Shown here piece by piece: positions 11,210 through 45,249 of a stretch of 64,000 nucleotides of DNA. Position 1 is the first letter of the stretch. Each line of letters opens with the position of its first letter. The notes beneath the pieces were generated by a model. The model was given only the letters and a program-made list of their open reading frames with translations, was not told the origin of the DNA and did no database searches. The stretch comes from a bacterium. GTDB taxonomy: Bacteria; Patescibacteriota; Andersenbacteria; UBA10190. Where the stretch lies: NCBI GenBank assembly GCA_030698495.1, contig JAUYKA010000008.1, positions 14,895 through 78,894 on the forward strand, in the 5' to 3' direction. The translations under genes and the position numbers were made by a program.

Positions 11210-13066
11210 ATGTCTAATCTTGGGCAACAAAAAAATAATATACGTATAGTGAGTATTGGTTTGCTAATAATAGGTGTGCTTGCTAGTGTTTTCCAGCTGT
11301 TATATGGCGTGGTTAGTGCTTCTATAGACCGCGATACCTATTTTTTGCTGGCGGCGGGCAGGGAAGTGGCATTAAGTGGAATTCCGCGCCTTCCTTTTTT
11401 TGTGAATAGTACGCCCGGAATCGATATTCTCTTTTGGACACACCAAGTGCCCGCCTTCTTATATGGGGCAATAGTGAAATTTTTGGATGTAAATATTTTT
11501 AGTTTTACCTGGGTTGTCATTGCCCAATTGATACTGACTATGGTTATTAGCTTCTTGTTTTTACGGGAGTTGTTGAAATGGTGTGAGCCGGGACTGGTGC
11601 GCTATGCACCGGTGTTCCTGTTGTTCCTGCTATATGATCCGATATTTAACATTCTTTTCCTGAATATAAAAATGTTTTTGCAATGGGCATATATTTGGTC
11701 TGTCTTAGCCATAATATTTTTAATATGGTTTTGGCATAACCCCCGCGGATGGCGTGGTTTAGTTTGGCTGTTTTTAAGCAGTTGTTCAGTGGCATTAGCT
11801 CCATTATCTTTTATAAGCTTGGGCATTCCGGCGGCACTTGGCATTGCCATCACAGAACTCTTGTTTGTGAGGTGGAGAACAAAAGGAATTTCACGAGAAT
11901 ATGCCATAAAAGCCTTTCTGGCCTGTATTTTAGGCTGGTTTATACCAGTGCTTTTTTTGTTAGTGTATTTGGGTGGTAAGCTGGATCCTGGCCAATGGAA
12001 AACTTTATGGGTTCTGGTTGGCTCTTATGGAGAAAACGCTTCCGTTCTAAGCATAAAACAATATATTCTCCAGCTTGGTTTTTTTGGGAGCACCATGTTT
12101 ATACCGCTACAGGGGTTCAGCTTGCTGCCAATCGGATTAATCTCAATATTTTCTAATTTTGTGCGGCGGCACAGTCTGGCTATCCAGCAGCAGTATTTGG
12201 TGTGGATGTCTTTTGTGTTGGTTGCAGCTTGGTTATTAGCGGCTTCTGTGGGGAGCACGCATTTTGCCAGCCACTTAATGATATGGATTTTGCCCATAAT
12301 GTTAGTGAATATTGCTATTATTTTAGGTTCAAAGAAGAACAGCGACACAAGAGCGATATTTTTGACGGCAGCATCGATTATTATTCTGGGGCAGGCTAGT
12401 TATCACTTAGTGCTTAATTCCTTAAACTATCTGGCAATTGCCGCGGCAGCAGGTGTGACATCGGGGATGATAATAGTTTTGTATTATCAAAAATGGAAAT
12501 TGCCGGTCTTTATAAGTTTGTTTATTTCTTTGTTGTTTTTTGTGCCGGTTGTACAAACAAGGTTAGTTTCCCTACATTCTTTTGCCCCAACGGTTTTACG
12601 GGAGGTCGGACGTGATAAATTATGGTCGTACGATAATTTTTTATTGGCTACTCGTGAAGTAACTAGCCGTTATGTTCAACCAAATGATTGGGTGTTAACT
12701 AATTTACCAGTGACTGAGCTTTTTCCCGAGGGCGTGAAGTTACAAATTCTTTATAACTATCGTGGTTTATTTAGCGGTGCTCGCCTTGAGCCGGGTGATG
12801 TGGCTATTCTTTTTGGTTCTACTGAAGCGAAGAGCATTGCTAATTATCAAAATATGAGTGTAGGTGAAGTATTTTCTTACCGTTTGTTTGAATATGAAAT
12901 ATTGAAGCGAGAAGAACTTTCTGCTGGGCATTATTTGTTAGTTGCTAAGCCAGCGGCCAGTTTAGATGCTAATAAGCAAGTTATTGAAGATGATCGAGCT
13001 GCTTCCAAAAGTGAGGTACGAAATTATTTGCAATGGCGGTTGGAGAACAATTTGCCAATTAAATAG
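11210..13066 (+). CDS. Large polytopic membrane protein of unknown function, a GT-C-like candidate with a C-terminal soluble domain.
   Basis: 618 aa with about 12 predicted TM helices, then a roughly 180-aa hydrophilic C-terminus. The first extracytoplasmic loop contains DRD. I recognise no family motif. Confidence 0.5.
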   Translation: MSNLGQQKNNIRIVSIGLLIIGVLASVFQLLYGVVSASIDRDTYFLLAAGREVALSGIPRLPFFVNSTPGIDILFWTHQVPAFLYGAIVKFLDVNIFSFTWVVIAQLILTMVISFLFLRELLKWCEPGLVRYAPVFLLFLLYDPIFNILFLNIKMFLQWAYIWSVLAIIFLIWFWHNPRGWRGLVWLFLSSCSVALAPLSFISLGIPAALGIAITELLFVRWRTKGISREYAIKAFLACILGWFIPVLFLLVYLGGKLDPGQWKTLWVLVGSYGENASVLSIKQYILQLGFFGSTMFIPLQGFSLLPIGLISIFSNFVRRHSLAIQQQYLVWMSFVLVAAWLLAASVGSTHFASHLMIWILPIMLVNIAIILGSKKNSDTRAIFLTAASIIILGQASYHLVLNSLNYLAIAAAAGVTSGMIIVLYYQKWKLPVFISLFISLLFFVPVVQTRLVSLHSFAPTVLREVGRDKLWSYDNFLLATREVTSRYVQPNDWVLTNLPVTELFPEGVKLQILYNYRGLFSGARLEPGDVAILFGSTEAKSIANYQNMSVGEVFSYRLFEYEILKREELSAGHYLLVAKPAASLDANKQVIEDDRAASKSEVRNYLQWRLENNLPIK

Positions 13067-13102
13067 CTTTTGTTACTTTACATATTTTGATAGACTATTT
13101 TA

Positions 13103-19828: not shown

Positions 19829-21097
19829 ATGGATGCTAAAAAAATATACGAACAGCTTTTTTATCTGGATCGCTCACTTATGGGGTCGGCTAATGACAAA
19901 GCTCTTGAATTGATAGGGGCCGAAATACCTTTGAGGATTTATAGTTTTCGCAGCGGCGATAAAGTTTTTGATTGGCAGATTCCTAAAGAGTGGATATTTC
20001 ATTCGGGACACATGGTCGATCAAGATACGGGTAAAACGTTGCTGAATGCTGCCGATAATATACTGCGCGTTGTTAATTACAGCGAGAAATTCCACGGCAC
20101 CGTAGAGTACAAGCAGTTGGTAAAGCATCTTCATTATAGTCATGTCATGCCCAATGCGATCCCTTATCTTACTAGTTATTATGCTAAAAACTGGGGGTTG
20201 TGTATGCCCCAAAAACAATTTCATCAGTTAAACAAGAAACATACGTATAAGGTTGAAATTGATGTCGAACGGAAGAGCGGAGTAATGAATATTGGGGAAG
20301 CGGTAATAAAAGGGAAGTCAGACAAAGAGGTTGTATATTCTTCCTATTTATGTCATCCCAGACAAGCCCATGATGGGTTGTCGGGAGTTGTTATGATGTT
20401 GTTGTTATTCCATCTCTTACGAGATAGCAATAATTATTATACTTATCGTTTTTTATTTATTCCTGAAACGATTGGCAGCATCGCTTTGTTGTCGCGCAAT
20501 ATTATACGTCCTTCTCGGGTGGAATATGCCCTTGTCGTTACGTGTGTCGGCAGGGGAGAGCATATTAATTATAAAAAGACGTTTTTGGCAAACCACACTA
20601 TTGATCGTGTTGTGGAACGAGTGCTTAAGAAAAAGGGAAGAAAATATACAGTGCGAACATTTTGGCCCCAAGGCAGTGACGAGCGACAGTTTTCGAGTCC
20701 AAGCATAAGAATTCCCACCGGGTCTATTATGGGAAATGTTTATCAGGAATACCCCGAATATCATACTTCGGCGGACAATTTGAATTATGTATCTTTGCCT
20801 GCGGTGAAAAAATTTGCTCAATTATACTATCAAGTTGCTAAAGAGTATGAGCAGTACCCTAAATTGATCAATAATCTACCGGGGGGTGAGCCTTTTTTGA
20901 CTAAGTATGGTTTGTATCGTGTATTAGGAGTACCCGGGCATACGTCACAAGAGACAATTCGCAGTTGGATATTGTTTCTGGCCGATGGCAGCCATACAAT
21001 TGTTGATATGGCGGCAGAAACCGGTTTTACTGAACGTGAGCTAAAGCCGTTTGTGGCACAATTACTTAAGATGAAGTTAATAAAAGAAACTGAATAA
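19829..21097 (+). CDS. Hypothetical protein, possibly an M28-peptidase-like (DUF4910-type) domain protein with a C-terminal winged helix.
   Basis: 422 aa. The assignment is from memory of the family (IYSFRSGDKVFDWQIPKEW, FIPETIGSIALL) and is tentative. Confidence 0.35.
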   Translation: MDAKKIYEQLFYLDRSLMGSANDKALELIGAEIPLRIYSFRSGDKVFDWQIPKEWIFHSGHMVDQDTGKTLLNAADNILRVVNYSEKFHGTVEYKQLVKHLHYSHVMPNAIPYLTSYYAKNWGLCMPQKQFHQLNKKHTYKVEIDVERKSGVMNIGEAVIKGKSDKEVVYSSYLCHPRQAHDGLSGVVMMLLLFHLLRDSNNYYTYRFLFIPETIGSIALLSRNIIRPSRVEYALVVTCVGRGEHINYKKTFLANHTIDRVVERVLKKKGRKYTVRTFWPQGSDERQFSSPSIRIPTGSIMGNVYQEYPEYHTSADNLNYVSLPAVKKFAQLYYQVAKEYEQYPKLINNLPGGEPFLTKYGLYRVLGVPGHTSQETIRSWILFLADGSHTIVDMAAETGFTERELKPFVAQLLKMKLIKETE

Positions 21098-21098
21098 A

Positions 21099-22904
21099 AT
21101 GGATATGTTTGTGCAGAAACCATACGTTCTGGCGGAAATTGCCGGGGCTCACGATGGCAGTGAAGAGCGATTATTTCAATTGATTGATGCTATTGGTGAA
21201 ACAGGAGCCCATGGAGTTAAATTCCAATTATTTCAAGCCGAAGGGCTGGCCACACAAGATCATCCACAGTATGCAATATGGCAGCGCCTTTCCTTTACAA
21301 CAGATATATGGCTTAGGGCTATGGACAAGGCGCGAGGCCTCGGGTTGAATGTGTGGATCGATGTCTTTGATGACTGGGCGCAGGATTTTTGTCTAAAGCA
21401 CGAGAAAAAAATATATGGGTATAAGTTTCATGCAACAAAGGTATTTGACCCGAGAGTTCCCCGTGTTTTTTACGGGAGTAAGAAGCATATCCTTATTGGC
21501 ATAAGCGGTTATGAAGACAGCGAGGTGCATAAACTTGTAAATTTATACTCCAGGTTACGACACGCCTCAATAATTCTCGAACATGGTTTTCAGCAATACC
21601 CCACGCCTTTAAAGGAAGCCAGTCTGGCGCGCATTCGACACTTAAAAGATAGTTTTATGTTACCGGTTGCGTTTGCCGACCATACTAAAGGGGGCTCAAG
21701 GGAAGCCATGATGATTCCGGAATATGCTTATATGGTCGGTGCCTCTTTGATTGAAAAACATGTTTGTCTTTCCCGAGCCACTACGAAGTATGATTATCAT
21801 TCTTCGCTGGAACCGGGGGAATTAAAGAGAATGGTTGAGCGGCTACGTGTTTGTAATGATGTATTGGGTGAGGATACGCCCACTATTGCACAAATTGAAA
21901 ACACGAAACAAGTTGTAGTAAAACCGGTGTTAAAAAGAAGTATAAAAAAAGGGGTTGTGGTGGGCGAGAAAGATGTGACTTATCTTCGTTCCCCTAATCG
22001 TAACGCTTTAACTGCTGAACGGTTTCAATCTCTTTTTCCGGCAGTTACCGACATGGATCTGGTTGCGGGGCGTGTTATTGAGGGAAGAGATGTACATCGT
22101 CCTCGTGTTATTGCGGTTGTGCCTTGTCGAATGAAATCCACTCGTTTACCCAAGAAGGCTCTATTAGAAATAGGCGGAATGCCTTCTGTTAAACGAGCAT
22201 TGATAAACATAAAGACTTTTCCGGTGAGCCAGGTTGTGTTGGCAACTTCTATTAATGGCGAAAATGATGAGCTGGTGGAGTATGCCAAGGAATTAGATGT
22301 CTCGGTAGTGAGAGGACCAGAGGATGATGTGTTAGAGAGAATTATTTTAGCAGTCAATAAGTATCAGGCAGAGTATGTAATTCGTTGTCCGGCTGATTCC
22401 ATTTTTGCAAGCGGTGACATTATGCGTTTTCTGATCGAGCGGCATATTACATCCGGATATGATTTGACGACTCCCGCTCAACCATATTCTATTGGCACGG
22501 CGGGGGAAGTGTATACCGTCGAAGCGCTTTATAAATTACGCAAATTACTTTTTAAAACCGAGTATAGTGAATACTTGCCGATGTATTTTACTAATAATCC
22601 GTCTATTTTTACCGCACAGCGGGTTCTTCTTCCTGAACAATTTCGTAATGATCAATGGAGATTAACTCTAGATGAAGAAAGAGACTTGGAATTATTTCGT
22701 AAAATTTATGATTACCTTAAACCCGGCCACAATCCTGTTTTCTATGAGCAGGTTGCCGAGTTTTTTGCCGCCTATCCGGGTGCGGAGAAGATTAACGCGG
22801 GAGTTTCTACTAAATGGTGTGATGACTATGAATTAGTAAGAAAAATTACAGAGAAAACTACTATTTCAAAAAAAGTTATATTAACGAATCGGGCAGTTGT
22901 TTGA
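21099..22904 (+). CDS. Bifunctional fusion: an N-terminal NeuB/SpsE-like nonulosonic-acid synthase domain (TIM barrel plus SAF-like) and a C-terminal SpsF/NeuA-like cytidylyltransferase domain.
   Basis: The N-terminus has VLAEIAGAHDGS...HGVKFQLF...AFADHT...IEKHVCLS, which is NeuB-like with a variant NHNG. The C-terminus has IAVVPCRMKSTRLPKKALLEI...VLATS...VVRG, the cytidylyltransferase signature. Confidence 0.7.
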   Translation: MDMFVQKPYVLAEIAGAHDGSEERLFQLIDAIGETGAHGVKFQLFQAEGLATQDHPQYAIWQRLSFTTDIWLRAMDKARGLGLNVWIDVFDDWAQDFCLKHEKKIYGYKFHATKVFDPRVPRVFYGSKKHILIGISGYEDSEVHKLVNLYSRLRHASIILEHGFQQYPTPLKEASLARIRHLKDSFMLPVAFADHTKGGSREAMMIPEYAYMVGASLIEKHVCLSRATTKYDYHSSLEPGELKRMVERLRVCNDVLGEDTPTIAQIENTKQVVVKPVLKRSIKKGVVVGEKDVTYLRSPNRNALTAERFQSLFPAVTDMDLVAGRVIEGRDVHRPRVIAVVPCRMKSTRLPKKALLEIGGMPSVKRALINIKTFPVSQVVLATSINGENDELVEYAKELDVSVVRGPEDDVLERIILAVNKYQAEYVIRCPADSIFASGDIMRFLIERHITSGYDLTTPAQPYSIGTAGEVYTVEALYKLRKLLFKTEYSEYLPMYFTNNPSIFTAQRVLLPEQFRNDQWRLTLDEERDLELFRKIYDYLKPGHNPVFYEQVAEFFAAYPGAEKINAGVSTKWCDDYELVRKITEKTTISKKVILTNRAVV

Positions 22905-23562
22905 AATTGCTATGCAGCACATGAATAATAGAAACAATACTTATCTAACCAAAAGCGAAGAAAGTCGTTTACGGTTATTGGAGAAAAATTCTCATGAATA
23001 TCTAGAACAACTGCAGGACAGTGCTCTTAAGTGGTCGTGGAGAGGGTGGATACCGCGGGCGCTGGGGAGATCTAAGTATTCCTTGTGGGCATGGCAAACA
23101 CGAGTTCCTCTGGCGCATCGTTGGTCCTTAATTCTTCAGCAATGTGAAGAATTAAGGACTTTTTTGATCCAGTCGGATTCATGGGAAAAAGCGCGATGTA
23201 TGAATGTGCTTGATTTGGGATGTGGTTTTGGCATGTATTGGCCAATATTGAGGGAATATGGATTCCGTAAGTTTGTGGGAATAGATTTATTCGATATGAG
23301 GGGGAGGCAGCAATATTTTAAAGCGGCGAGAAAATATATTGGAAAATTTTGTTCGGACTGTGAAACTCAATTAATTATGGACGATGTTCGAAATCTAGAT
23401 AAACATAAACTGCTGGCTGATAAGTTTGATATAATTTTAAATATAGCAACTACCTCCACAAAACTTAGATCCACCGGTATTCCCCACGATATTCTAGAGA
23501 GTGTCGGGAAAAAACATGGGGCAGAAAATTGCCTTATAGTCGACGTTGCCAAGGCCCATTAA
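22897..23562 (+). CDS. Class I SAM-dependent methyltransferase.
   Basis: It has VLDLGCGFGMYW (motif I), FDIILNI and a post-I acidic residue. Confidence 0.6.
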   Translation: MFEIAMQHMNNRNNTYLTKSEESRLRLLEKNSHEYLEQLQDSALKWSWRGWIPRALGRSKYSLWAWQTRVPLAHRWSLILQQCEELRTFLIQSDSWEKARCMNVLDLGCGFGMYWPILREYGFRKFVGIDLFDMRGRQQYFKAARKYIGKFCSDCETQLIMDDVRNLDKHKLLADKFDIILNIATTSTKLRSTGIPHDILESVGKKHGAENCLIVDVAKAH

Positions 23563-34532: not shown

Positions 34533-35258
34533 ATGGCTATAAATATTCAGAAAAAGATTTGTATAATAGTACCGGCTTATAACGAGGAGGGGTTTTTGGC
34601 CGAGGTGGTGGGTGATATCAGAAAATATTGCCCAGAGGCCCAAATAGTGGTTGTGAATGATGCCTCTAGTGATAGTACTAAACTGGTTGCGTGGTCGCAA
34701 AGAGTGCCCGTTTTGGACTTGCCTACCAATTTGGGTATTGGCGGGGCTATGCAGACGGGGTTTTTGTATGCGGTGCGTAACGGTTTTGACGTTGCGATGC
34801 AGGTAGACGCCGACGGGCAACATGATCCTCGGTTCATACCTGTTTTATTGGAAGCGCTGGGGGAACGCGGGGCCGACATGGTAATCGGAAGTCGTTTTTT
34901 GGAGCGAGTCGGCTACCGGGCCTCGTTTATGAGGTTGTTTGGGATCAGATTTTTTGCCTGGTTGATTGGTATGATGACCAATAGGCGTGTTTATGACGCT
35001 ACCTCCGGATACCGTGCCTATAATAAAGAAGCTTTAAATTTCGTGGCAAAATATTATCCGTCTGATTTTCCGGAGCCGGAATCGATTGTCATTATGCTCC
35101 GTAACGGGTTCAAAATTAAAGAAGTGCCGGTCGTGATGAAACATCGCCAAGCAGGAACTTCCTCGGTGCGTCCTTTAAAGGGAACATATTTTGTGGTATC
35201 TAATGCTGTGGCGATTATAATCAGTGCTTTTAAAAGAAGGTTACGTTCAAGTTTATGA
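34533..35258 (+). CDS. GtrB/CsbB-like GT2 polyprenol-phosphate sugar transferase. I chose a start at 34533; the longest ORF starts at 34413.
   Basis: It has ICIIVPAYNEEGFL, VVVNDASSDST, MQVDADGQHDP and MVIGSRF, the classic dolichol/undecaprenol-phosphate glycosyltransferase signature. Confidence 0.85.
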   Translation: MAINIQKKICIIVPAYNEEGFLAEVVGDIRKYCPEAQIVVVNDASSDSTKLVAWSQRVPVLDLPTNLGIGGAMQTGFLYAVRNGFDVAMQVDADGQHDPRFIPVLLEALGERGADMVIGSRFLERVGYRASFMRLFGIRFFAWLIGMMTNRRVYDATSGYRAYNKEALNFVAKYYPSDFPEPESIVIMLRNGFKIKEVPVVMKHRQAGTSSVRPLKGTYFVVSNAVAIIISAFKRRLRSSL

Positions 35259-35641
35259 TTGATTTTTTGGTTTTCAGCGGTTCTATTCCGGCTCGTACAC
35301 AAACGTTTGCTATTGTTGTTAGCGGGGGTTTATTTTTATTGATTGTGTATTTAATACGTAGCGGTCGCCTGAAAGAGGGTTATTCGCTGATATGGTTTTT
35401 TATAGCGTTAGCTACGGTTGCCTTGTCGGTTTTTAGTGGACTGCTTGATGTTTTTGCCAGGTTTATCGGAATTGCTTATGTACCGGCAGCTCTGTTTTTA
35501 GTGTTGTTGGGCGGAGTGTATTTATTGGGTATTCATTTTTCTTTGCTGCTCAACAGGTATGATAAACGCATCCGACAATTGGCCCAAGAGCATGCTATAC
35601 TGAAGGAACAAATCGCTAAACTGCTTGATAAAAAGTTATGA
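35255..35641 (+). CDS. Small 3-4 TM membrane protein with a C-terminal amphipathic tail (GtrA-role or DUF2304-like). It is a likely partner of the GtrB-like enzyme.
   Basis: 128 aa, translationally coupled to the upstream GT2 by an ATGA overlap. It has hydrophobic helices then KRIRQLAQEHAILKEQIAKLL. Confidence 0.5.
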   Translation: MIDFLVFSGSIPARTQTFAIVVSGGLFLLIVYLIRSGRLKEGYSLIWFFIALATVALSVFSGLLDVFARFIGIAYVPAALFLVLLGGVYLLGIHFSLLLNRYDKRIRQLAQEHAILKEQIAKLLDKKL

Positions 35642-36624
35642 AAAAATTTCTCATAACCGGGGGGGCGGGGTTTATCGGGTCTCATCTTGCAGAGTATCTG
35701 TTAGCTAAGGGCGCGGGAGTTAGGGTTGTAGATAATTTGTCTACCGGGTCGGCAGACAATATGCGGTCTTTTTCGGGTAATCCGTCTTTTGAATTTACTA
35801 TCGGGGATGTTGTTGACAAAGAACTGATGACAAAGGAGATGTCGGGGGTGGATGGTGTGTTTCACCTAGCCGCTTCTGTGGGGGTAAAGCATATTATGGA
35901 GAACTTGGTGGCATCTATCAGAAATAATGTATTGGGCACGGAGGTGGTATTGGAGACGGCGAGTGATTTAGGGGTAAGGATTCTTTTAACGTCAACTTCG
36001 GAAGTATATGGAAAAATTAGTGATCAGCCATCGGCGGAAAGCGATGATTTTCGGATGGGTGAGCCGTTGAAAAGCCGTTGGTCTTATGCTTGTTCCAAGG
36101 CGTTGGATGAATATATGGCTTTTGCCTATTATCATGAGCGTAACTTGCCAGTTACGGTCACCAGATTGTTTAATACTGTCGGGCCAAGACAAACAAGTGC
36201 TTACGGAATGGTTATTCCGACATTTGTAAAACAAGCTGTAGCCGGGGAACCGATAACAATTCATGGTGACGGGAAGCAGTCTCGCTGCTTTGTGTATGTT
36301 AAGGATGTTGTATGGGCCTTGTATAATTTAATGTTTTCCGACGCGGCAGTGGGGGAAATATACAATATTGGCAGTACCGAAAAAATAACAATTGATGAGT
36401 TAGCGGACAGAATAATCAAAATAACCGGAAGCGCCAGCATTAAGAAATATTTTCCTTATGATCATGTTTATAAAGTTGGTTTTGACGATGCTTACAGTAG
36501 ACAGCCTAAAATTGATAAGGTGCAACAAGCGATAGGGTTTATGCCGCGGCATAAACTTGATGACATCATTAAATTGGTTTTAGAAAACATTGCGAAGCCT
36601 GAAAAAGCGGTGGTGAGTAATTAG
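35638..36624 (+). CDS. NAD-dependent sugar-nucleotide epimerase/dehydratase (UXS/ArnA-decarboxylase-like SDR).
   Basis: It has ITGGAGFIGSHL, TSTSEVYGK, the catalytic YACSK, and RLFNTVGPRQ. Confidence 0.8.
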   Translation: MKKFLITGGAGFIGSHLAEYLLAKGAGVRVVDNLSTGSADNMRSFSGNPSFEFTIGDVVDKELMTKEMSGVDGVFHLAASVGVKHIMENLVASIRNNVLGTEVVLETASDLGVRILLTSTSEVYGKISDQPSAESDDFRMGEPLKSRWSYACSKALDEYMAFAYYHERNLPVTVTRLFNTVGPRQTSAYGMVIPTFVKQAVAGEPITIHGDGKQSRCFVYVKDVVWALYNLMFSDAAVGEIYNIGSTEKITIDELADRIIKITGSASIKKYFPYDHVYKVGFDDAYSRQPKIDKVQQAIGFMPRHKLDDIIKLVLENIAKPEKAVVSN

Positions 36625-38480
36625 TTTTTAAAACTAGCAGACATTTGAGTTTTCCATTGCTTGGCGAATTGTCCATTAAGAGAGATAAGTTGCGTTAAGG
36701 TGCCGTGTTCTTTAATTTCGCCATGTTCCAGATAAATGACTTGACTCGCATTTTTTATAGTGGACAGGCGATGGGCTATAAGTAATAGTGTCTTATTCCG
36801 AAAAACTGTATTCATAGTGTTTTGAATATATCTTTCAGTGGCGGAATCCAGGGCACTGGTGGCTTCGTCAAGTAGTATTATTTCTGCTTTTTTGATTAGT
36901 GCCCTGGCGATAGCCACTCTTTGTTTTTCTCCGCCGGATAATTGGACGCCTCGGTCGCCAATAACAGTATCCAGGCCTTTTTCCAAACGGTTAATGAGCT
37001 CGTTCAGTTGTACTTGAGATATTATGTGTTGTAGTTGTTGGTCGCTGACTTCTTTTTGGCTGTAGGTAAGATTGTTTTTTAAGGAATCGTGTAATAAAAT
37101 CGGGTCTTGATCAACGATAGCAATATGCTGTCTTAATGATTTAAAATCTAAATCCCTAATATCGGTGTTATCAAAAAAAATGGTTCGGGGCGGACACTCG
37201 TAAAAGCGCATTAAGAGATTAATAATAGTTGATTTCCCGCTGCCGGAGGGTCCTACTAAAGCAGTAAGTTGTCCCTTAGGGACATTGAAGCTGACATGGC
37301 GCAATACCGGTTCTCTTCCTTCGTAAGTAAAGCTTAAATTTGATATTCTGATTTTGTTTTGAAGGCCGGTGAAAATTGTACTGCCTTCTCGCACTATATA
37401 TTTTCCTTTATTGTTAAAAGTGCCGATAATTTCCAGAAGAGGCGGAGTCATTTCTGAAATTGCAACCCAAATACTGTTAAACACTTTAAACAAAGGAACT
37501 GTTCGGGAGGCCACATAAAGAAAGATTATAATTCTGGTTAAATCCAGGCCGTTGTCACGGTGGATGGAGAAGGCGATGTAAGCTACTACAAAAAATAAGG
37601 TGAGGACGGTGATTAAGCGAGGAATCAGGATAGTAAAGTATCCCAGGGCTTCGGCCTTGAGTTGAACTTTTCTGAACTTTTCATTCATTTGAGCATAATG
37701 TTTTTTTGATTGTTCTTCTTGGGAGTAACTCCAGACCAGGGGCAAAGAAGACAAAATATTAAAAGATTCTCGGCTAAGATCCATGGTGACTTCTTTGGCT
37801 TGCCGCCAAAGAGTGTTAACTTTTTTCATGATTTGGCGGGAAGTTAGGTACAGAAGAGGAAATATCAGTAAAACCATTATCATTAGACGCCAGGATAGCC
37901 AAGTCATAACAGCCAGGTATCCGATCAGTTGGGTTAGGCTAGCCAGGTTGTTCTGGGATATTCTAACTAACTGTACGCTGCTGTTGGTGTATTCCAGGAC
38001 TTTTTTGATGGTGCCGTGGCTTGTTTTATCAAAAAATAATTTACCGAAGGAAAAATAGCGGTTATATACAAAAGTATGGAGATGCCATTGGTATTTTCCC
38101 TGAAGATAACGACCATAGTAGGTGTAGATAAAAGTGACAATTATTCCCAATAAATTAGTCAGAAATATTGTACCGGCCAGTATAAAAAATATGAGGGCGG
38201 GACTAATTTTGATATTAGTGTTGCGGAAGAAAAAACCCGCTGTTTTTGAAAGTGGTTCCGGCAGTTGAGCTGCCGTGAAGCCCGTTCCCGTGATGCCTTG
38301 TGCCAAAGGAACCAGTAGGCCGATACCCAAAACATCGAAAGTAGCAACGGCGATGGACAGAAGAATTAAGATAACAATCTGATACGGTTTGACATGCATT
38401 ACGTTCAGAAGGCGCCGAAGGAGCTTAATCTGTTGTCTTCGCTTATCAGAAAGCCAAAATTTGTTATTTGGGGTAAGCAT
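36621..38480 (-). CDS. ABC exporter with fused permease and ATPase (MsbA/PglK-like). It is a candidate lipid-linked oligosaccharide or glycolipid flippase.
   Basis: The N-terminus has 6 TM. It has Walker A GPSGSGKST, the signature LSGGEKQRVAIARAL and Walker B ILLDEATSALD. Confidence 0.9.
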   Translation of the reverse strand: MLTPNNKFWLSDKRRQQIKLLRRLLNVMHVKPYQIVILILLSIAVATFDVLGIGLLVPLAQGITGTGFTAAQLPEPLSKTAGFFFRNTNIKISPALIFFILAGTIFLTNLLGIIVTFIYTYYGRYLQGKYQWHLHTFVYNRYFSFGKLFFDKTSHGTIKKVLEYTNSSVQLVRISQNNLASLTQLIGYLAVMTWLSWRLMIMVLLIFPLLYLTSRQIMKKVNTLWRQAKEVTMDLSRESFNILSSLPLVWSYSQEEQSKKHYAQMNEKFRKVQLKAEALGYFTILIPRLITVLTLFFVVAYIAFSIHRDNGLDLTRIIIFLYVASRTVPLFKVFNSIWVAISEMTPPLLEIIGTFNNKGKYIVREGSTIFTGLQNKIRISNLSFTYEGREPVLRHVSFNVPKGQLTALVGPSGSGKSTIINLLMRFYECPPRTIFFDNTDIRDLDFKSLRQHIAIVDQDPILLHDSLKNNLTYSQKEVSDQQLQHIISQVQLNELINRLEKGLDTVIGDRGVQLSGGEKQRVAIARALIKKAEIILLDEATSALDSATERYIQNTMNTVFRNKTLLLIAHRLSTIKNASQVIYLEHGEIKEHGTLTQLISLNGQFAKQWKTQMSASFKN

Positions 38481-38552: not shown

Positions 38553-39659
38553 ATGGCTTTAATTAATAAAAAGATAAAGATTTTACACCAATATCATAAC
38601 AATGTTTTTGATATGGTAAAGGTTCTTGAAGAAAACAATGAAGTGGTTTTTTTATCTTATAGGACCAGTCGTTTGGTGCCAGGGATAAGGAATAACGAGC
38701 CGAGCACATTTAGGTTTATATGGCCGATGTACAATCCTTTTAAATTATCAAAATTACTGGGTAAAGATACTGATATATTGGTTTTAAAACATATAAACGA
38801 TCCAATTAACTTTTTTCCGTACATTTTGTCTTGGATTAAAGGAGTAAAATGCGTGGTGGCTGTTCAGCGACTTACTCATAAAAATTTTTGGGGCTACCGG
38901 TTTCTTTTTCGTTTGGGCGTACGCTTGTTGTGTCTGCTTGGAGTTAGAATTATGGCCGTAACGCAAGATAGTTATGAAGAGTTGTCCAAAACCCGCCTAA
39001 AGACTGTTTATATTCCAGCTTGTATCAAGGCGAGCTGCTGGGAATCGGTTAATGACCAGACGTCCCACTTAAGCGCTAACCAACTGTCAATTATCACCGT
39101 TGCGAAATATCAGAAGCGCAAAAACATCCCCCTACTGGTGAAGGCTGTAGCTGAATTAGTTAAAAAATATCCACTTATGGGGTTCCGGTTAGTAATAGTT
39201 GGTGATCTTTCCATTAGAAAGAAATCTCAAGATGAGTTTAGACGAGTTAAAAATTTAGTGAAGCAATATTGTCTTGAGGATATAATTATTCTTCGCTCTA
39301 ATGTTTCCCACAAAGAAATGCCCGCTATTTATAATCAGAATAATATTTTTGTATTGCCGGCCGGTAGTGAGCCGTTAGGTTATGCCGTGCTGGAAGCAAT
39401 GGCTAGCGGTAAACCGGTTATTTGCTCGGACCAAGTTGGGGCGGTTTCGTATATAGAGGAGGGAAAAAATGGTTATATATGTGAGGCCGGATCATTAAGC
39501 TCTCTCGTTCAAAGCCTGGAAAAGTTTATTAGAAACAATAATGAGATTAATATTCAAAAAATCGAAGAGTTTGGAAGATATGGTAAAACTTTAGTGGAAA
39601 GAAATCACAGCGCGGGTGTATTTTTAAATAAGTTTGAAGAATTAGTATGTATGAAATAA
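38553..39659 (+). CDS. GT4-family glycosyltransferase.
   Basis: VLPAGSEPLGYAVLEAMASGKPVICSDQVGAVSYIEEGKNGYI. Confidence 0.85.
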   Translation: MALINKKIKILHQYHNNVFDMVKVLEENNEVVFLSYRTSRLVPGIRNNEPSTFRFIWPMYNPFKLSKLLGKDTDILVLKHINDPINFFPYILSWIKGVKCVVAVQRLTHKNFWGYRFLFRLGVRLLCLLGVRIMAVTQDSYEELSKTRLKTVYIPACIKASCWESVNDQTSHLSANQLSIITVAKYQKRKNIPLLVKAVAELVKKYPLMGFRLVIVGDLSIRKKSQDEFRRVKNLVKQYCLEDIIILRSNVSHKEMPAIYNQNNIFVLPAGSEPLGYAVLEAMASGKPVICSDQVGAVSYIEEGKNGYICEAGSLSSLVQSLEKFIRNNNEINIQKIEEFGRYGKTLVERNHSAGVFLNKFEELVCMK

Positions 39660-41080
39660 TGAGAAGAAGAGACGTATCCTGGTTATTGGTGGTGGTCACA
39701 GCTGTTTTTGTGATTGTGCTTTGTTGGCAATATCCTTTGTCGGTTTCGTTTCCTGTCGGTGGAGATGTTATGCGCTATATAGCCAGAGCTAATGCGGTAA
39801 AGGACGCCTTGCAATTTTCTATACCAGACGGGTTCAGTCTTCTAATAAGAAATTCATCATACCCGGCTTCTATTTTGGTAGTTCTGGTGGCCGGTTTGGT
39901 GCCGATAGGGTGGCCCGAGAAGTGGCTATTGTTGATGTTTCTGGCTCAAATTGCTTGTGCGGGATCGCTTTATTATGTAGTCGGAAAAATTACCGGCAAC
40001 AGAATAACGGCTTGTTTAGCGGCCGCAGCCTGGGCGATTGTGGGTTTAAGTTTTACCCGCCATATTGAAGACGGGACATTTGCCCAACTTATGAGTCTGC
40101 CGGCTTTTGTGTTTTTTCTGGGGCAGTTGATGAATAAAAAGTATATCACGGCGATTTTTTGGGTGATGTTGTCGTTCTTGTTCCATCCGGTTACCGGCTT
40201 GGTCGCCGGGTTGGTTGCTGTTCTTTATCTGGTGACTAACCTTGATAATTTTGTAAGCTCGAGCAAAAAAAAGGTTGTTGGTTTGGTGTTGTTGGTGATT
40301 TCTTTGGGGGTAGCGATCTATTTTTTGAAAAAATATGATCATTTATTTTTATTGGACTATTCAAGTGATAATGGCATATCGTTGACTGATTTACTTAACT
40401 CTTCTTTTGGTACTTTGTTGGTCATGACTCCCTTGGGAATGATAGTGTTTTTGAGAAAATATAAGCGAGAGGGACAGGCCCTGGTTGTTGCTACGTTTAT
40501 ACTATTTCTCTTTATTTTTCAGAACCAGCTGGTGGGGGAGAGTATGTTTATTAACCGCATAAATTCTTATCCGGCCATTTTTGTTTCCATATTCTCGGCG
40601 ATTGCGATAGCTGAAGTGGTGAGAACCATTAGGGTTGCCAATATTCTTTTGCGGGTGCTTCTGGTCTTAGTGTTTTTTAGTATGGGTGTTAGCGTTTGGT
40701 CGCAGCAAGGAAATATTTATCGGTATTATGATGATCCGGGAAATTATGCCAGAGTGCACCCTGATGAACTGGCTGCTATTTACTGGTTACGCGATAATAC
40801 TGCTGCTGATGACGGAATTGTTTCTACCGTTGCTAACAGACATAGTGAGTGGATACCAATATTAAGCCAAAGACAGTGGGTCGGTTTGTATGCTGACGAC
40901 GTATTATTTACCGCCGATAATTTTTTGTTTAAGAAGATTAGCGGGGAAAAGGGCTATGATTACGCAGTGGTTTTTAAGAACCGTGAGGAGAGAGTTGATT
41001 TGATTAAAGGAGGGGTTTCGGAATCGTCTATTGTGTATCAGAATGACGCCGCGGAAATAATTAAAATATCACAGCTATGA
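39647..41080 (+). CDS. Polytopic membrane protein of unknown function, a GT-C-like candidate.
   Basis: 477 aa with 10-12 TM helices, then a roughly 120-aa soluble C-terminus. I recognise no motif. Confidence 0.5.
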   Translation: MYEIMRRRDVSWLLVVVTAVFVIVLCWQYPLSVSFPVGGDVMRYIARANAVKDALQFSIPDGFSLLIRNSSYPASILVVLVAGLVPIGWPEKWLLLMFLAQIACAGSLYYVVGKITGNRITACLAAAAWAIVGLSFTRHIEDGTFAQLMSLPAFVFFLGQLMNKKYITAIFWVMLSFLFHPVTGLVAGLVAVLYLVTNLDNFVSSSKKKVVGLVLLVISLGVAIYFLKKYDHLFLLDYSSDNGISLTDLLNSSFGTLLVMTPLGMIVFLRKYKREGQALVVATFILFLFIFQNQLVGESMFINRINSYPAIFVSIFSAIAIAEVVRTIRVANILLRVLLVLVFFSMGVSVWSQQGNIYRYYDDPGNYARVHPDELAAIYWLRDNTAADDGIVSTVANRHSEWIPILSQRQWVGLYADDVLFTADNFLFKKISGEKGYDYAVVFKNREERVDLIKGGVSESSIVYQNDAAEIIKISQL

Positions 41081-41463
41081 AAAATAACCGGAAAACATCC
41101 CTGGCGTTACTGGCTATTTTGGGTGTTGCTATTAGTGTTAATTTTCACGTACCAGTGGGGATAGTCATACTGGCGAGCACACTGTTGTACGTCGTGTATA
41201 TTGTGTCGGTCCATGATTATCAGATAATGGTGCGGGTATTTCCTTATGGGGCAGTAATTGGCCTGGCATATTTTATCAGAATACCGGTATTGGAAAACCA
41301 ACCTATTCTGCCAAGGGTGCTGACGGTGATTGCTTTATGGTCTATGGTTTTTTTATCTATTGCTTGGTTTACGGAATGGATTTTGCGAAGCAAGAACAAA
41401 ACCACCCTGCAGCGTGAGGATAGCAAGAGAGAGCCACATAATAATTTGGGAAAAAGCAATTAG
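41077..41463 (+). CDS. Small 4-TM membrane protein.
   Basis: 128 aa with an ATGA overlap to the upstream membrane gene. It overlaps the convergent 41353..42027 ORF by 111 nt. Confidence 0.4.
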   Translation: MKNNRKTSLALLAILGVAISVNFHVPVGIVILASTLLYVVYIVSVHDYQIMVRVFPYGAVIGLAYFIRIPVLENQPILPRVLTVIALWSMVFLSIAWFTEWILRSKNKTTLQREDSKREPHNNLGKSN

Positions 41464-42027
41464 TTTTTCTTTGCTGTTTAGCCTTTCAAGTAATAGCTCT
41501 AATCGTGTATTAGATTGGGTGAGTATCAGGCTGATGTTGCCCTGTTTAATGTTGTTGGCGATTTGGTAATGGCCTTGAGGAAAGGCATTGGCGTCTTTTT
41601 CAATAAAGACCGCGGGGGCTAAAGAAGATTCATCTGCGGGGATATGGTTGGCGTCTATGGTGATTGTTAGTACGCCATCCACAGGCGTTGGTGTGTCTAG
41701 CGGGAAATTGAATTGGTGGGTACCTTGGTTGGTGGTGACTGTCCAGGTCTGTAGTAAAGCACTGTTGTGAAGAAGGCTTACCGCGAAAGGCGTGCCTTGG
41801 TTTCGGGAGTAGATGGGTATGGTAAGACCGGACAAGCGATATAATCGGTTGAGGGTGATGTTTTCACTATAGACAAATTGAGCATATGCCGGATCGGCTA
41901 GTTCCGGTTCACTGTGTGCTTTGATATTATATAAAACGGTTTCTTGATTGGAGGATAAATAATAATAGGCCCCGGTCAGCCAGGCGGCAATAATAAGTGT
42001 TGAAATAATGGTTGTTTTAGTGCGCAT
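41353..42027 (-). CDS. Membrane-anchored hypothetical protein with an N-terminal signal anchor and a beta-rich ectodomain.
   Basis: 224 aa with an N-terminal TM IISTLIIAAWLTGAYYYL. Its 3-prime end overlaps the convergent small ORF, so one of the two may be shorter or spurious. Confidence 0.4.
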   Translation of the reverse strand: MRTKTTIISTLIIAAWLTGAYYYLSSNQETVLYNIKAHSEPELADPAYAQFVYSENITLNRLYRLSGLTIPIYSRNQGTPFAVSLLHNSALLQTWTVTTNQGTHQFNFPLDTPTPVDGVLTITIDANHIPADESSLAPAVFIEKDANAFPQGHYQIANNIKQGNISLILTQSNTRLELLLERLNSKEKLIAFSQIIMWLSLAILTLQGGFVLASQNPFRKPSNR

Positions 42028-42108
42028 ATTGTGATTATATCAGTCAAAGTTGAATAACAGGAGTAATACAGATAGGATAAACAATATTTACTTATTATAG
42101 GTTATATT

Positions 42109-43065
42109 ATGGCAAAGTATTTAGTAACGGGCGGAGCGGGCTTTATCGGATCACACTTAGTGCACCGTTTGGTGGCCGAGGGGAACGAAGTGATAGCGCT
42201 CGATAATCTTACCGCCGGTAAAATAGAAAATATTAAGGCAGTCGCAAGCCGGGTGACGTTTGTAAAGGGAGATATTAGACAAATTGATTTACTACAGAAA
42301 CTGATGGGGGGTGTTGAGGTGGTTTTGCACACGGCGGCGTTAAGATCCGTTCCTCTTTCAGTAGATAATCCGTCGGCAGTGAACGATGTAAATATCGGTG
42401 GAACTTTAAATATACTGTTGGCGGCCAGAGACAATGGGGTGAGGCGGGTGGTGATGTCCTCGTCTTCGTCGGTTTACGGGCAGATTGAAGCGGAGAAACA
42501 GGTGGAAACCTTGCCGACTCATCCGGAATCACCTTATGCGCTCACAAAACTGGCGGGCGAGCAGTATTGTCGTCTGTTCGGCGAGTTGTATGGGCTGGAT
42601 GCTATATGCTTGCGCTATTTTAATGTGTTTGGGCATTGGCAGGATCCAAATTCAAAGTATTCGGCGGTGATACCTATTTTTGTAAGCGCCCTGTTACGAG
42701 GACAGATGCCGACGATACATTGGGACGGCCAGCAGAGCCGTGATTTTACTTTTGTCGATAATGTGGTTGACGCTAATTTATGCGCGGCGCAGGCGCCAAT
42801 AAAAAGCCAGGGAAATGCTTATAATATCGCTAATGGCGGAACGACTTCCATAAATGAATTATTGGCGCAGATTCAGGAATTACTGGGGACGAATATTGTT
42901 CCCAGATATATGCCGAAAAGGGCGGGCGATATCGGCAGGACACGTGCTGATATTGAGCGGGCGAGGCGAGAATTAAACTGGGAGCCTAAGGTTTCGTTTA
43001 ATGAGGGGTTGGCGCGTTCGCTGGAATGGTATAAAGAGAACGCGGTAGAGCCGGTAGCGGTTTAG
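42109..43065 (+). CDS. WbpP/TviC/WbgU-family UDP-N-acetylhexosamine (uronic acid) 4-epimerase.
   Basis: It has VTGGAGFIGSHL, SSSSVYGQ, SPYALTKLAGEQY (the YxxxK triad), LRYFNVFGHWQDPNSKYSAVIP and NDVNIGGTLNIL. These align with WbpP motifs. Confidence 0.8.
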   Translation: MAKYLVTGGAGFIGSHLVHRLVAEGNEVIALDNLTAGKIENIKAVASRVTFVKGDIRQIDLLQKLMGGVEVVLHTAALRSVPLSVDNPSAVNDVNIGGTLNILLAARDNGVRRVVMSSSSSVYGQIEAEKQVETLPTHPESPYALTKLAGEQYCRLFGELYGLDAICLRYFNVFGHWQDPNSKYSAVIPIFVSALLRGQMPTIHWDGQQSRDFTFVDNVVDANLCAAQAPIKSQGNAYNIANGGTTSINELLAQIQELLGTNIVPRYMPKRAGDIGRTRADIERARRELNWEPKVSFNEGLARSLEWYKENAVEPVAV

Positions 43066-43089
43066 GACAAGCAACTAGCCAGAGAAGGT

Positions 43090-45249
43090 TTGCGGGCATA
43101 TATTGAGTTCATGAAAACGAGTGTAAAAACGCATGTTTTGGCAGTAGGATTCTATTTGCTAGCGACGGTAATTTTTAGCTTGCCGGTGGGGTTACATTTG
43201 ACCGACCAGGTGGTTGGGGCGGGAGGTGATCCGTGGCAGACAATGTGGAGATTTAGCCATTACGAGCAGCAAGTAGTAAGTAGTAAGCAGCAAGGAATGT
43301 TGCTGCAGTTAGTGCGAGAAACATTTGGCGGTGCCGGAGATTCACGTTTGGTTAATTTGTCGGCATGGCCGTGGATGTGGCTGCAGGTTATCGCGGGGCA
43401 GCCGCTAACATATAATTTGGTTTGGCTGGGCAGTTTCACATTGGCTGGTTACGCAATGTTTTTGCTGGCGCAATATTTATTAAAAAGACATTGGGATCAG
43501 ATAAAGGAAAAGGAAGAGATTAGAAATACGCCGGCTAGGCAAATTAAAGTGGCTGCATTTTTGGCCGGTTTTTATTATATGCTGCTTCCTTTTCATGTGG
43601 CGCATGCGCAAGGGCATTTCGGCGCGATGCAACTGGCGTGGCTGCCGCTGGCGATATTATTGATTTTTAAAATTTTGGATAAGCCGACTTGGGGGCGTGG
43701 TCTGGGGCTGGCAATTGTGGTAATTATTCAGGCGTGGACAGAGCACCACTATGCTCTGTGGCTGGCTGTATTTGCTTTAATTTTGGCGGTTTGGCGGTGG
43801 CGCAAAGTGATTGATATTATGCGAGGCAAGCGGTCGGTGGTGATTTGGGTCATGGCGGTGGTGATTGGGTTGGGGATTATTGTGCCATACTGGCCGACGG
43901 TGAGGTTGGTGGGGTCCGGTGATAGTGTTTTGAATTTAGGGACGGATCAGACAGTCAGGTTTTCGGCTGACGTATTTTCCTATCTGGTGCCGGCGCCGTT
44001 TCAAACATTGTGGGGAAAATACGCGCAGATGTTGTTTTCCCAGCGCTTTACCGGAAACTTTACCGAATCCACGCTTTTTCTCGGCTGGGTGCCTTTGTTG
44101 CTGATATTGTTCTTTAGTCAAAGAGTACCGCGCCAACAGCGAGTATTTTGGTTGGTAGTTGCCGGTTTTTTTGGATTGATTAGTTTAGGCCCGCTACTTC
44201 ATGTAATGGGAACAGTAACGCGTATTCCGTTACCGTACGCGCTGATTGATAGTTGGCCGATATTTAGCTCGGTTAGGGCGGTGGCTCGGGCAGGAGTAAT
44301 GGTAGAAATTAGCGTCGCGGTTTTGCTGGGTTGGGTGGTGGCCACTCAAGTAAATAGGAAAAGCATGGTTTTTGCGCTGGCGGGCGTGATTATGCTGGAG
44401 TTTATGTTTTGGCCGATGCCAATGCAGTCGGCGAGACTGTCTCAAGTGTATCGGCGTGTGAGCGAATTGCCGGGGAAGAGCGTGATAGAGATACCGGCAG
44501 CGACAAATTACACGACCGCATCTCGGGCTTTGTACGCGAGTGAGATTCATGGTAAAAAAGTTGTCGGCAGTATCGCGCTGGAGCGGGCTGAAGGCGATAG
44601 TGATAACGCAGAAATAAGATCTCTACCGGCCTTAAGGCAGCTGCTTTATTTGCGAACAACTCATGTCGAGCGGCAGAGTGATGATTTCTTCGGCCAGGTG
44701 TTGGCGGAAACACTGCCGGATGTTTTGAGGTATTTGGACGTGGGCGCGATTGTTATAAATAAAGATTCTTTATCAGATAATCAGTTGACGGTCGTGCGTC
44801 AGTTTCTGGAGCGGGAGATGAAGATGCAGGCGGAGGATTTTGGCGATGTTGTGTTATACCTGGCTGAAATTGATAAACTGCCGGCGGGCGACGGTGTTTT
44901 CTTGTCGCGGGATAGCCGCTGGGCCAACGTGGGGTATGACAGTAAGCGTGACAGTATTTTTGCCGAAATACCCAATGAGGCTGAAGTGGCACTGTATAAC
45001 GTAAGGGGTGAGAATGTCCAGGTTGGGTTAAGGTTTGATATCGCGCCAGAGTCACAAGGAAACATTTTGGTTAAATCCGCGGACAAAATGGTAACAGACT
45101 TACATTTACAAGGAGGTGAAGAGGCAAAAATTAGGATGACACTACCGTTGGGTAAAACAACTTTGACTTTCATTAATCGCGGTAGCGGGAAAGTGGTTAT
45201 CCAAAATCCCTTGCTGGAAGTCGCTGGGGTAGGAGTAGAGATTAATTGA
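43090..45249 (+). CDS. Large polytopic membrane protein with a C-terminal extracytoplasmic domain. It is a GT-C-like candidate, possibly an oligosaccharyltransferase or polymerase-type enzyme.
   Basis: 719 aa with about 12 TM helices. The first loop has LTDQVVGAGGDPWQ, an acidic motif. The C-terminal roughly 250 aa is hydrophilic and beta-rich. I assigned no family. Confidence 0.5.
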   Translation: MRAYIEFMKTSVKTHVLAVGFYLLATVIFSLPVGLHLTDQVVGAGGDPWQTMWRFSHYEQQVVSSKQQGMLLQLVRETFGGAGDSRLVNLSAWPWMWLQVIAGQPLTYNLVWLGSFTLAGYAMFLLAQYLLKRHWDQIKEKEEIRNTPARQIKVAAFLAGFYYMLLPFHVAHAQGHFGAMQLAWLPLAILLIFKILDKPTWGRGLGLAIVVIIQAWTEHHYALWLAVFALILAVWRWRKVIDIMRGKRSVVIWVMAVVIGLGIIVPYWPTVRLVGSGDSVLNLGTDQTVRFSADVFSYLVPAPFQTLWGKYAQMLFSQRFTGNFTESTLFLGWVPLLLILFFSQRVPRQQRVFWLVVAGFFGLISLGPLLHVMGTVTRIPLPYALIDSWPIFSSVRAVARAGVMVEISVAVLLGWVVATQVNRKSMVFALAGVIMLEFMFWPMPMQSARLSQVYRRVSELPGKSVIEIPAATNYTTASRALYASEIHGKKVVGSIALERAEGDSDNAEIRSLPALRQLLYLRTTHVERQSDDFFGQVLAETLPDVLRYLDVGAIVINKDSLSDNQLTVVRQFLEREMKMQAEDFGDVVLYLAEIDKLPAGDGVFLSRDSRWANVGYDSKRDSIFAEIPNEAEVALYNVRGENVQVGLRFDIAPESQGNILVKSADKMVTDLHLQGGEEAKIRMTLPLGKTTLTFINRGSGKVVIQNPLLEVAGVGVEIN

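Follow-up and report, generated by a model that had tools for sequence, protein, structure and literature searches.

We conclude that three large polytopic membrane proteins, here called A, B and C, are integral-membrane glycosyltransferases of the GT-C class, that they belong to three separate families, and that they likely act on polyprenyl-phosphate sugars. They are encoded in a stretch of 64,000 nucleotides (the window) of contig JAUYKA010000008.1, from a bacterium of the Andersenbacteria lineage. We put the probability of this reading as a whole at about 0.62. In the predicted structures the GT-C assignment holds for A and C, and for B it is probable from the comparison of sequence profiles. 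The three proteins would thus extend a known enzyme class, and most likely they add lipid-carried sugars to a surface glycan or to a protein rather than forming a new kind of system. An earlier note, made from the sequence of the window, had picked out these three reading frames (11210-13066, 618 residues; 39647-41080, 477 residues; 43090-45249, 719 residues from a TTG codon) as possible GT-C enzymes, glycan polymerases or oligosaccharyltransferases. All three are present, and C most likely starts at the ATG at 43111, which gives 712 residues, because the length of its NCBI record and the starts of its homologues agree on this.

The earlier note had given each protein about 10-12 transmembrane helices and a hydrophilic C-terminal domain. 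We took the topology from hydropathy and, for A and C, from the secondary structure of AlphaFold models, with the N-termini placed inside since basic residues precede the first transmembrane helix. The description fits B (about 10-11 helices) and C (about 11) but not A, which has about 13. The soluble C-terminal domain is found in all of them, as an alpha/beta tail of about 150 residues in A, a domain of about 124 residues in B and a part of about 275 residues in C. C has a periplasmic alpha/beta domain and a C-terminal beta-sandwich (residues ~596-704) that resembles a carbohydrate-binding module (CBM). The acidic residues reported in the first outer loop are conserved, with a correction for A. 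The Asp of the GGD motif is invariant in B, where it is D40 of a PxGGD motif after the first helix (12 of 12 sequences), and in C, where it is D40 of GxGGDPWQxxWR (48 sequences, numbering of the 712-residue form). In the DRD motif of A conservation is limited to D42 (at least 90% of 19 sequences), and D72 is the acidic residue of that loop that never varies. Other invariant residues of C are H169, E211-H213, R283, D287, R389 and R393, and A also conserves G205 and P362.

The assignment of A is shown by its fold. A word-indexed search of 5.8 billion proteins returned A alone, and HMMER, applied in full to 1.84 billion cluster representatives, gave 32 relatives, the best at 34% identity; the stronger matches are mostly 606-652 residues long and align end to end. 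The AlphaFold2 model built from 19 sequences has a pLDDT of 88.6 and a pTM of 0.90. When it is compared with the PDB by Foldseek, the top 24 matches are all GT-C enzymes (AglB, ArnT, ALG12, STT3, Pmt4, EmbB, AftA, DPY19, PimE and ALG3), and the matches with probabilities of 0.87-1.0 are GT-C enzymes exclusively. AglB and ArnT have E-values of 4e-4 to 5e-4, and EmbB has the highest TM-score, 0.46. Transporters (MurJ first, then AdiC and others) have probabilities of at most 0.12 and TM-scores of at most 0.15, and on this fold comparison a transporter of the MFS, RND or MOP type is ruled out.

The same comparison was made for C, which has 172 detectable homologues, nearly all of them from Andersenbacteria. 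Its model, from a 48-sequence alignment, has a pLDDT of 90.9 and a pTM of 0.89. Among the 19 best Foldseek matches in the PDB, 16 are GT-C enzymes with E-values from 7e-7 to 2e-3: AftD, which comes first at 7e-7, PglB at 3e-5, yeast and human STT3, and AftA. The remaining three matches come from chains of Ape1, a peptidoglycan O-acetylesterase, and cover only about 220 columns, and domain-sized matches to CBM6, CBM35 and CBM36 appear farther down; in the model we attribute both to the C-terminal beta-sandwich. No transporter is among the matches listed for C, and the fold rules out this reading for C as well. An assignment to MFS or RND transporters, the outcome which the earlier note had set against GT-C, thus did not occur for the AlphaFold model of either protein.

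Pfam and NCBIfam gave nothing significant for A, B, C or members of their families, only chance matches to PgaD, DUF6113, PsbM and Hanta_Gc_C, and sequence and profile searches of the PDB found nothing. The Pfam models for ArnT, PMT_2, PMT, GT87 (DUF2029) and DUF2079, three of which the earlier note had proposed to search together with Wzy_C, do not match A, B or C, and nor does Wzy_C. The Pfam YfhO model (PF09586) matches neither the three proteins nor 48 members of the C family, 3 of the B family and 19 of the A family. For these 19 the only Pfam result is one sub-threshold GT87 match at E 0.0024. DUF6311 and DUF6044, precomputed tags carried by a few C homologues, could not be reproduced as significant Pfam matches and were set aside. 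Comparing the A, B and C families directly with hhalign shows no relationship among them, and we therefore treat them as three separate families.

The view that none of the proteins matches a recognised family thus stands for Pfam, NCBIfam and PDB sequences, but profile comparison identifies C, and probably B, as remote members of the YfhO superfamily. The link runs through two giant polytopic proteins encoded near the start of the window, at 4690-7539 (family Y1) and 2274-4712 (family Y2), whose genes overlap by 23 nt. All five scanned orthologues or paralogues of the former score above the Pfam YfhO cut-off of 28.5 bits (range 32.5-56, with three at 53-56), and the Y1 and Y2 families match each other with an hhalign probability of 100%. 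The C family matches Y1 and Y2 at 97.4% and 97.7% (E 1e-11 and 2e-12) over about 350 collinear columns, with reversed controls at 0.6% or less, and its GH, W-x-P, E-x-x-YLG and Arg motifs fall in register with those of the YfhO-type proteins. From these profiles we place C in the YfhO superfamily as a remote member. The B family started from two relatives and was enlarged through a metagenome scan and genome loci to 12 full-length sequences at 24-32% identity. It matches two YfhO-type families at 80% and 90% (E 1e-5 and 1e-6) over 226 and 320 collinear columns, again with reversed controls at 0.6% or less, so that B is probably also a remote member. Over the whole set of reversed-sequence controls the probability stayed at 2% or less. 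The invariant Asp of B lies just after the first transmembrane helix, as it does in C and in YfhO (D47 in the 4690-7539 family). Other conserved parts of B are the EDGT.AQL motif, the acidic pair E141-D142 and, in the C-terminal domain, NRHSEWIP with R398, E401 and W402. B has no match among PDB sequences and no direct profile link to A or C. For A, hhalign gives no link to the B, C or YfhO families (0.4% or less against YfhO), and we therefore regard it as an independent GT-C family. The choice between GT-C and transporter is accordingly settled by fold for A and C, and for B GT-C is only probable, through its profile matches to YfhO-like families.

Gene order around C is strongly conserved. 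We compared 35 loci from species-representative genomes and one more (L001) that was found by exact look-up of a homologue, 36 in total, using simple open reading frame calling with BLAST or HMMER. The taxon labels of many of these loci ("uncultured Candidatus Saccharibacteria") are those of the depositors and are probably generic. C is directly followed by the orthologue of the GT4 gene 45263-46411 in 35 of the 35 loci whose sequence reaches far enough downstream, where the two genes mostly overlap by 4 bp, and the orthologue of the second GT4 gene, 46408-47517, comes next in 33 of 33. This order is kept even for homologues with 24-28% identity in other Parcubacteria. Farther downstream, a block of glycosyltransferase and related genes (48930-57263) is found in the same order in most of the 35 loci, and presumably builds the glycan or glycolipid on which C would act. 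A Trp-repressor-like reading frame of 152 residues (47585-48043, plus strand) separates the second and third GT4 genes downstream of C as an insertion into the otherwise conserved order, and L011 has a similar one at 7909-8421. The upstream side of C is variable. In L021 (8449-10017), L023 (8470-10017) and L026 (8476-10008), a polytopic protein of about 510-520 residues is encoded directly upstream of the C homologue; the L021 copy has a sub-threshold PMT_2 match, the sole addition from a Pfam scan of unknown neighbours. L001 encodes a PMT_2/GtrA fusion (9-1403) upstream of its C homologue. It thus seems usual for this lineage to have several GT-C genes in an array.

A DUF2304-like small membrane protein is encoded about 1-5 kb upstream of C in 18 of the 36 loci. 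In the loci examined it lies beside a short GT2 gene, and an epimerase gene is often found between this pair and C. The corresponding trio of the window (34413-36624) is separated from C by an insertion of 6.4 kb that holds an ABC exporter, a GT4 gene, B, a reading frame at 41077-41463, a 224-residue protein and an epimerase. Based on its sequence families, we see the trio as a candidate polyprenyl-phosphate-sugar synthase for C, similar to GacI/GacJ and to PgfS/PgfE. The GT2 reading frame as listed overlaps the GT4 gene 33306-34823 (minus strand) by about 410 nt. Its homologues have about 240 residues, and the true start is probably near 34530. The ABC exporter (36621-38480) is absent from related C loci and is a possible flippase or exporter of a lipid-linked glycan.

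Gene order around B is also conserved: the epimerase, the 224-residue bitopic protein on the opposite strand and, very often, the YfhO-type giants are kept. The bitopic protein (41353-42027) has no Pfam match and is possibly a partner or acceptor-binding subunit of B. A is transcribed divergently from a GT2-methyltransferase fusion gene. Near relatives of A, a short GT2 is encoded in L051, L054, L055 and L056, a class-I S-adenosylmethionine (SAM)-dependent methyltransferase in L051, L053, L054 and L055 (the entry for the fusion in Table 1 also counts one in L056), an uncharacterised protein of about 500-525 residues in L051, L054, L055 and L056, and an epimerase in L052. The fusion supports the idea of a functional module of GT2, methyltransferase and A, and it is a candidate maker of a lipid-linked and possibly methylated sugar donor for A. 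None of the 35 C-family loci contains an A homologue, so A looks like a rare accessory gene that was acquired horizontally.

Given these features, the most likely mechanism is, by analogy, the one used by YfhO and GacL, in which a sugar is transferred from polyprenyl phosphate outside the membrane. A cytoplasmic GT2 enzyme would load the sugar onto polyprenyl phosphate (34413-35258 with its DUF2304 partner for C, the fusion 9472-11151 for A), with neighbouring epimerases supplying the nucleotide sugar. The lipid-linked sugar would then be flipped across the membrane, and the GT-C protein would transfer it to an extracytoplasmic acceptor with the help of the conserved Asp that opens its first outer loop. 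For C we favour a glycan or glycolipid acceptor because of the fixed GT4 operon, the downstream GT4, GT9, GT2 and TagF-like block and the CBM-like domain. The acceptor would be made by these co-encoded enzymes and could be bound by the CBM-like domain. The role of C would then be comparable to that of YfhO or GacL on wall polymers, or to that of PimE and the Aft and Emb enzymes, which extend glycolipids. A Ser/Thr-rich surface protein would be the alternative acceptor.

Several observations weigh against our reading. A, B and C all score below every Pfam model of a GT-C family, and the TM-scores of the models to solved GT-C structures are only about 0.3-0.46, which therefore indicate a common core fold and not close similarity. 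For B, hhalign probabilities of 80-90% are suggestive but fall short of proof. The pairing of GT2 and DUF2304 with C is seen in only about half of the loci, and in the window the pair is about 7.5 kb away. The enzymes that always share an operon with C are GT4s of the cytoplasm, an arrangement which would suit an en-bloc glycan transferase as well. No GtrA-type flippase is seen in the window. Lastly, the donor type, the pairings with donor synthases and all the acceptors are inferred here, from context and from known relatives.

The first alternative concerns the acceptor. C, B or both could be protein O-glycosyltransferases of the YfhO-family PgtC2/PgfM type or of the PMT type, placing single sugars onto Ser/Thr-rich surface proteins. 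The streptococcal proteins PgtC2 (with GtrB) and PgfM1 and PgfM2 (with PgfS and the epimerase PgfE) are tied to O-glycosylation of Ser/Thr-rich protein regions, the gene composition of the Pgf cluster (PgfS, PgfE, PgfM1/2) equals that of GT2, DUF2304, epimerase and C, and homologues of B lie directly beside an epimerase gene. However, the beta-sandwich of C resembles carbohydrate-binding modules, C is universally coupled to GT4, GT9 and TagF-like genes, which favours a glycan as acceptor, and no Ser/Thr-rich substrate was identified. On this balance we consider protein acceptors the less likely, but still a serious, alternative. The earlier note had expected one of the three proteins to be the transferase or ligase if the locus glycosylates a protein; in that case the analogy would be with a PMT-like monosaccharide transferase and not with an oligosaccharyltransferase.

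A more far-reaching possibility, to which we give a small chance, is that the C family is the lineage-defining GT-C of Andersenbacteria and related Parcubacteria. C would be the central extracytoplasmic enzyme of an undescribed envelope lipoglycan of the candidate phyla radiation (CPR), in the manner of PimE and Emb for lipomannan and lipoarabinomannan, or else a new protein glycosyltransferase acting on pilin-like proteins with a LamG domain. A and B would then be horizontally shuffled, strain-specific modules that diversify the surface. On this reading C would not be a decorator of side chains. The LamG pilin-like proteins are surface proteins that these episymbionts may use for contact with the host.

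An oligosaccharyltransferase or ligase had been among the functions proposed at the outset, and C or A could in principle move a pyrophosphate-linked oligosaccharide, assembled by the GT4, GT9 and GT2 enzymes, en bloc to the LamG pilin-like protein at 59136-60179 or to a cell-wall acceptor. PglB, STT3 and AglB are indeed among the best Foldseek matches, C is translationally coupled to the GT4 genes in every locus, the ABC exporter at 36621-38480 is of the MsbA/PglK type, and the window has a gene for a pilin-like protein. But the W[WY]D motif, the WWD signature of oligosaccharyltransferases, is absent from all three proteins, and none of them matches the Pfam STT3 model at E-values up to 1. 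The structural matches are at TM-scores of about 0.4 and are interleaved with the monophosphate-donor enzymes AftD, AftA, ArnT, ALG12 and Pmt4, so they would reflect the GT-C core that all of these enzymes share. The sole sequence-level relatives of C are YfhO proteins, which use monosaccharides on undecaprenyl phosphate as donors. Additionally, the window reading frames that were scanned include no initiating phosphoglycosyltransferase, and the ABC exporter is not conserved with C. This leaves only a slim chance for en-bloc transfer. Nor did the other suggestions, a PglL/Wzy_C ligase or a glycan polymerase, gain support, as A, B and C have no match to the Pfam Wzy_C, O-antigen polymerase or EpsG models at E-values up to 1. 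That B is a Wzy/EpsG-type polymerase has a very slight chance: two NCBI records, B included, carry the name "EpsG family protein" and about 10-11 helices in a polysaccharide locus would suit such an enzyme, but we set the label aside since it could not be reproduced for B and its two relatives with Pfam EpsG, Wzy_C or O-antigen polymerase (E-values up to 10) or with NCBIfam (nothing relevant), while the only profile-level links of B are to YfhO-type proteins, its soluble C-terminal domain of about 120 residues is conserved, and an Asp follows the first helix as in YfhO.

Table 1. Features of the window that bear on proteins A, B and C, in order of position.
Feature	Coordinates	Strand	Basis and remarks
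Split YfhO-like gene, originally ~750 aa	311-985 and 1152-2273	+	Alignment to 754-aa homologue
Giant polytopic YfhO-type GT-C, 812 aa (bridge family Y2)	2274-4712	-	hhalign to Y1
Giant polytopic YfhO-type GT-C, 949 aa (bridge family Y1)	4690-7539	-	Weak Pfam YfhO match in window copy
GT2-methyltransferase fusion protein	9472-11151	-	Pfam Glycos_transf_2 and Methyltransf_23; separate GT2 and methyltransferase genes near A homologues in L051, L054, L055, L056, methyltransferase only in L053
Protein A, 618 aa, GT-C-fold membrane glycosyltransferase	11210-13066	+	AlphaFold2 model, Foldseek
DUF4910/M28-like protein	within 19829-24636	+	Nonulosonic-acid module
NeuB-cytidylyltransferase fusion	21099-22904	+	Nonulosonic-acid module
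Methyltransferase	within 19829-24636	+	Nonulosonic-acid module; listed between NeuB fusion and second NeuB
Second NeuB, with SAF domain	23563-24636	+	Nonulosonic-acid module
GT2	34413-35258	+	Pfam; listed reading frame 281 aa from TTG 34413
DUF2304 small membrane protein	35255-35641	+	Pfam
Epimerase	35638-36624	+	Pfam
Fused ABC exporter (transmembrane and nucleotide-binding domains)	36621-38480	-	Pfam ABC_membrane and ABC_tran
GT4 glycosyltransferase	38553-39659	+	Pfam Glycos_transf_1; end overlaps start of B by 13 nt
Protein B, 477 aa (NCBI record 473 aa), probable small YfhO-superfamily GT-C	39647-41080	+	hhalign, alignment
224-aa protein, transmembrane helix at each end	41353-42027	-	Homologue adjoins B in L015, L038-L041, L043-L048
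NAD-dependent sugar epimerase/dehydratase	42109-43065	+	Pfam Epimerase, E 1e-63; homologue usually accompanies B
Protein C, 712 aa, GT-C-fold YfhO-superfamily glycosyltransferase	43111-45249	+	AlphaFold2 model, Foldseek, hhalign
Two GT4 glycosyltransferases of the C operon	45263-46411 and 46408-47517	+	Pfam, synteny
Block of GT4, GT4, GT9, GT4, GT2, polysaccharide deacetylase and TagF-like Glyphos_transf protein	48930-57263		Pfam; order kept in most of 35 loci

The three genes lie in a single very large glycan-biosynthesis locus that, from a Pfam scan of the window reading frames, extends from 7.6 to 57 kb (Table 1 gives the parts discussed here). It contains many GT4 and several GT2 genes, two GT9-like genes, four NAD-dependent epimerases or dehydratases, about eight SAM methyltransferases, two NeuB-type nonulosonic-acid synthases and a cytidylyltransferase, a polysaccharide deacetylase, a TagF-like protein and an ABC exporter, with MurJ farther along. 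The segment 19829-24636 (plus strand) is a nonulosonic-acid module, for a sialic, legionaminic or pseudaminic-like acid. The G+C content is 37-42% at 16-40 kb and 45-49% in the flanks, which fits a variable glycan island that has been shuffled by horizontal transfer and is bordered by conserved flanks; the GC skew is +0.09 to +0.31 across the whole window, independent of gene strand. The split YfhO-like gene at 311-2273 changes frame between about 964 and 1110, and its N-terminus lies beyond the start of the window. In the alignment to the 754-residue homologue, frame 2 (338-964) covers residues 148-354 and frame 3 (1110-2264) covers residues 368-749. The gene is a pseudogene, or else the split comes from an assembly error. 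Several relatives have an intact counterpart between two GT4 genes of the conserved block. Near the other end, the product of 59136-60179 (plus strand) has an N-terminus that by eye resembles a type IV pilin or pseudopilin leader with its hydrophobic helix. A Laminin_G_3 (LamG) domain comes after it, and the protein might serve as a substrate for glycosylation. The earlier note had presumably meant this product when it spoke of a pilin-like protein; a regular-expression scan for type IV pilin leaders gave nothing convincing. In total the window has at least five intact GT-C genes (A, B, C, 2274-4712 and 4690-7539) and one split gene, which suggests a heavy investment in extracytoplasmic glycosylation.

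The assignment of unannotated polytopic proteins (domains of unknown function, or DUFs) to GT-C by AlphaFold is now routine. CPR bacteria, or Patescibacteria, are uncultivated and host-dependent, and their cell-surface chemistry is essentially unknown. A literature search on Patescibacteria and GT-C, and on Andersenbacteria, found nothing relevant. Three "hypothetical" membrane proteins now have a fold, probable in the case of B, and a plausible mechanism. At least two GT-C families have no Pfam model: that of A, which is rare, and that of C, which is conserved in Andersenbacteria. The conserved operon of C and two GT4 genes gives a concrete handle on a conserved envelope glycoconjugate of this lineage.

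Comparing the three proteins to known systems can help to place them. PglB, AglB and STT3 have the GT-C core fold and an acidic residue in the first loop and are found among the Foldseek matches, but the WWD(Y/W)G motif and the STT3 Pfam match are missing here and the periplasmic domain is distinct. The mycobacterial enzymes AftD, AftA and EmbB are the best structural matches (AftD is first for C and EmbB has the highest TM-score for A). They are alike in the GT-C core with extracytoplasmic carbohydrate-binding domains and, as far as can be inferred for A, B and C, in the use of a polyprenyl-monophosphate donor and a glycan acceptor. Carbohydrate-binding domains are known from large GT-C enzymes, among them AftD and possibly S. 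aureus YfhO. However, the identity is about 10-13% at TM-scores of 0.4-0.46, and A and C are much smaller and have neither detectable sequence homology to these enzymes nor an arabinan context.

The GacI/GacJ/GacL system of Streptococcus pyogenes and PpgS/Rv3632 of M. tuberculosis share with our locus a GT2 gene followed by DUF2304, near a GT-C that is presumed to use a polyprenyl-phosphate sugar on a surface glycan. GacJ is a DUF2304 protein that stimulates GacI, and PpgS/Rv3632 behave likewise; the products are polyprenyl-phosphate N-acetylhexosamines, and in the Gac system the GT-C GacL uses the lipid-linked sugar outside the cell. GacL, though, is of the PMT_2 type and not YfhO-like, and here the pairing of GT2 and DUF2304 with C comes from synteny only, in about half of the loci.

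At the level of sequence, the parallel for B and C is the YfhO family (PF09586), with B. subtilis and S. aureus YfhO, Listeria Lmo1079, PgtC2 and PgfM1/2. YfhO is the GT-C component of the CsbB/GtcA/YfhO system that glycosylates teichoic acids, with an undecaprenyl-phosphate sugar as donor and transfer of a single sugar. Its members share the polytopic GT-C form, the Asp after the first transmembrane helix and a large extracytoplasmic C-terminal part, and in hhalign both C (97%) and B (80-90%) match YfhO-type proteins from the same genomes. The association of a short GT2 with an epimerase is also similar, as in CsbB/YfhO and PgfS/PgfE/PgfM. The differences are that B and C miss the Pfam YfhO model, that B has about half the size (477 residues), and that C has its own GxGGDPWQ..WR motif, a CBM-like beta-sandwich and a fixed operon with two GT4 genes. 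The small partner is GtrA/GtcA in the YfhO systems whereas it is DUF2304 here, and A is without a YfhO link. The GT-C enzyme class and this type of pathway are already known, and A, B and C are strongly divergent members and not a new type of enzyme. What is new are the A and C families without Pfam coverage, the strict order of C and two GT4 genes across a CPR lineage, the DUF2304-type partner and the GT2-methyltransferase fusion beside A.

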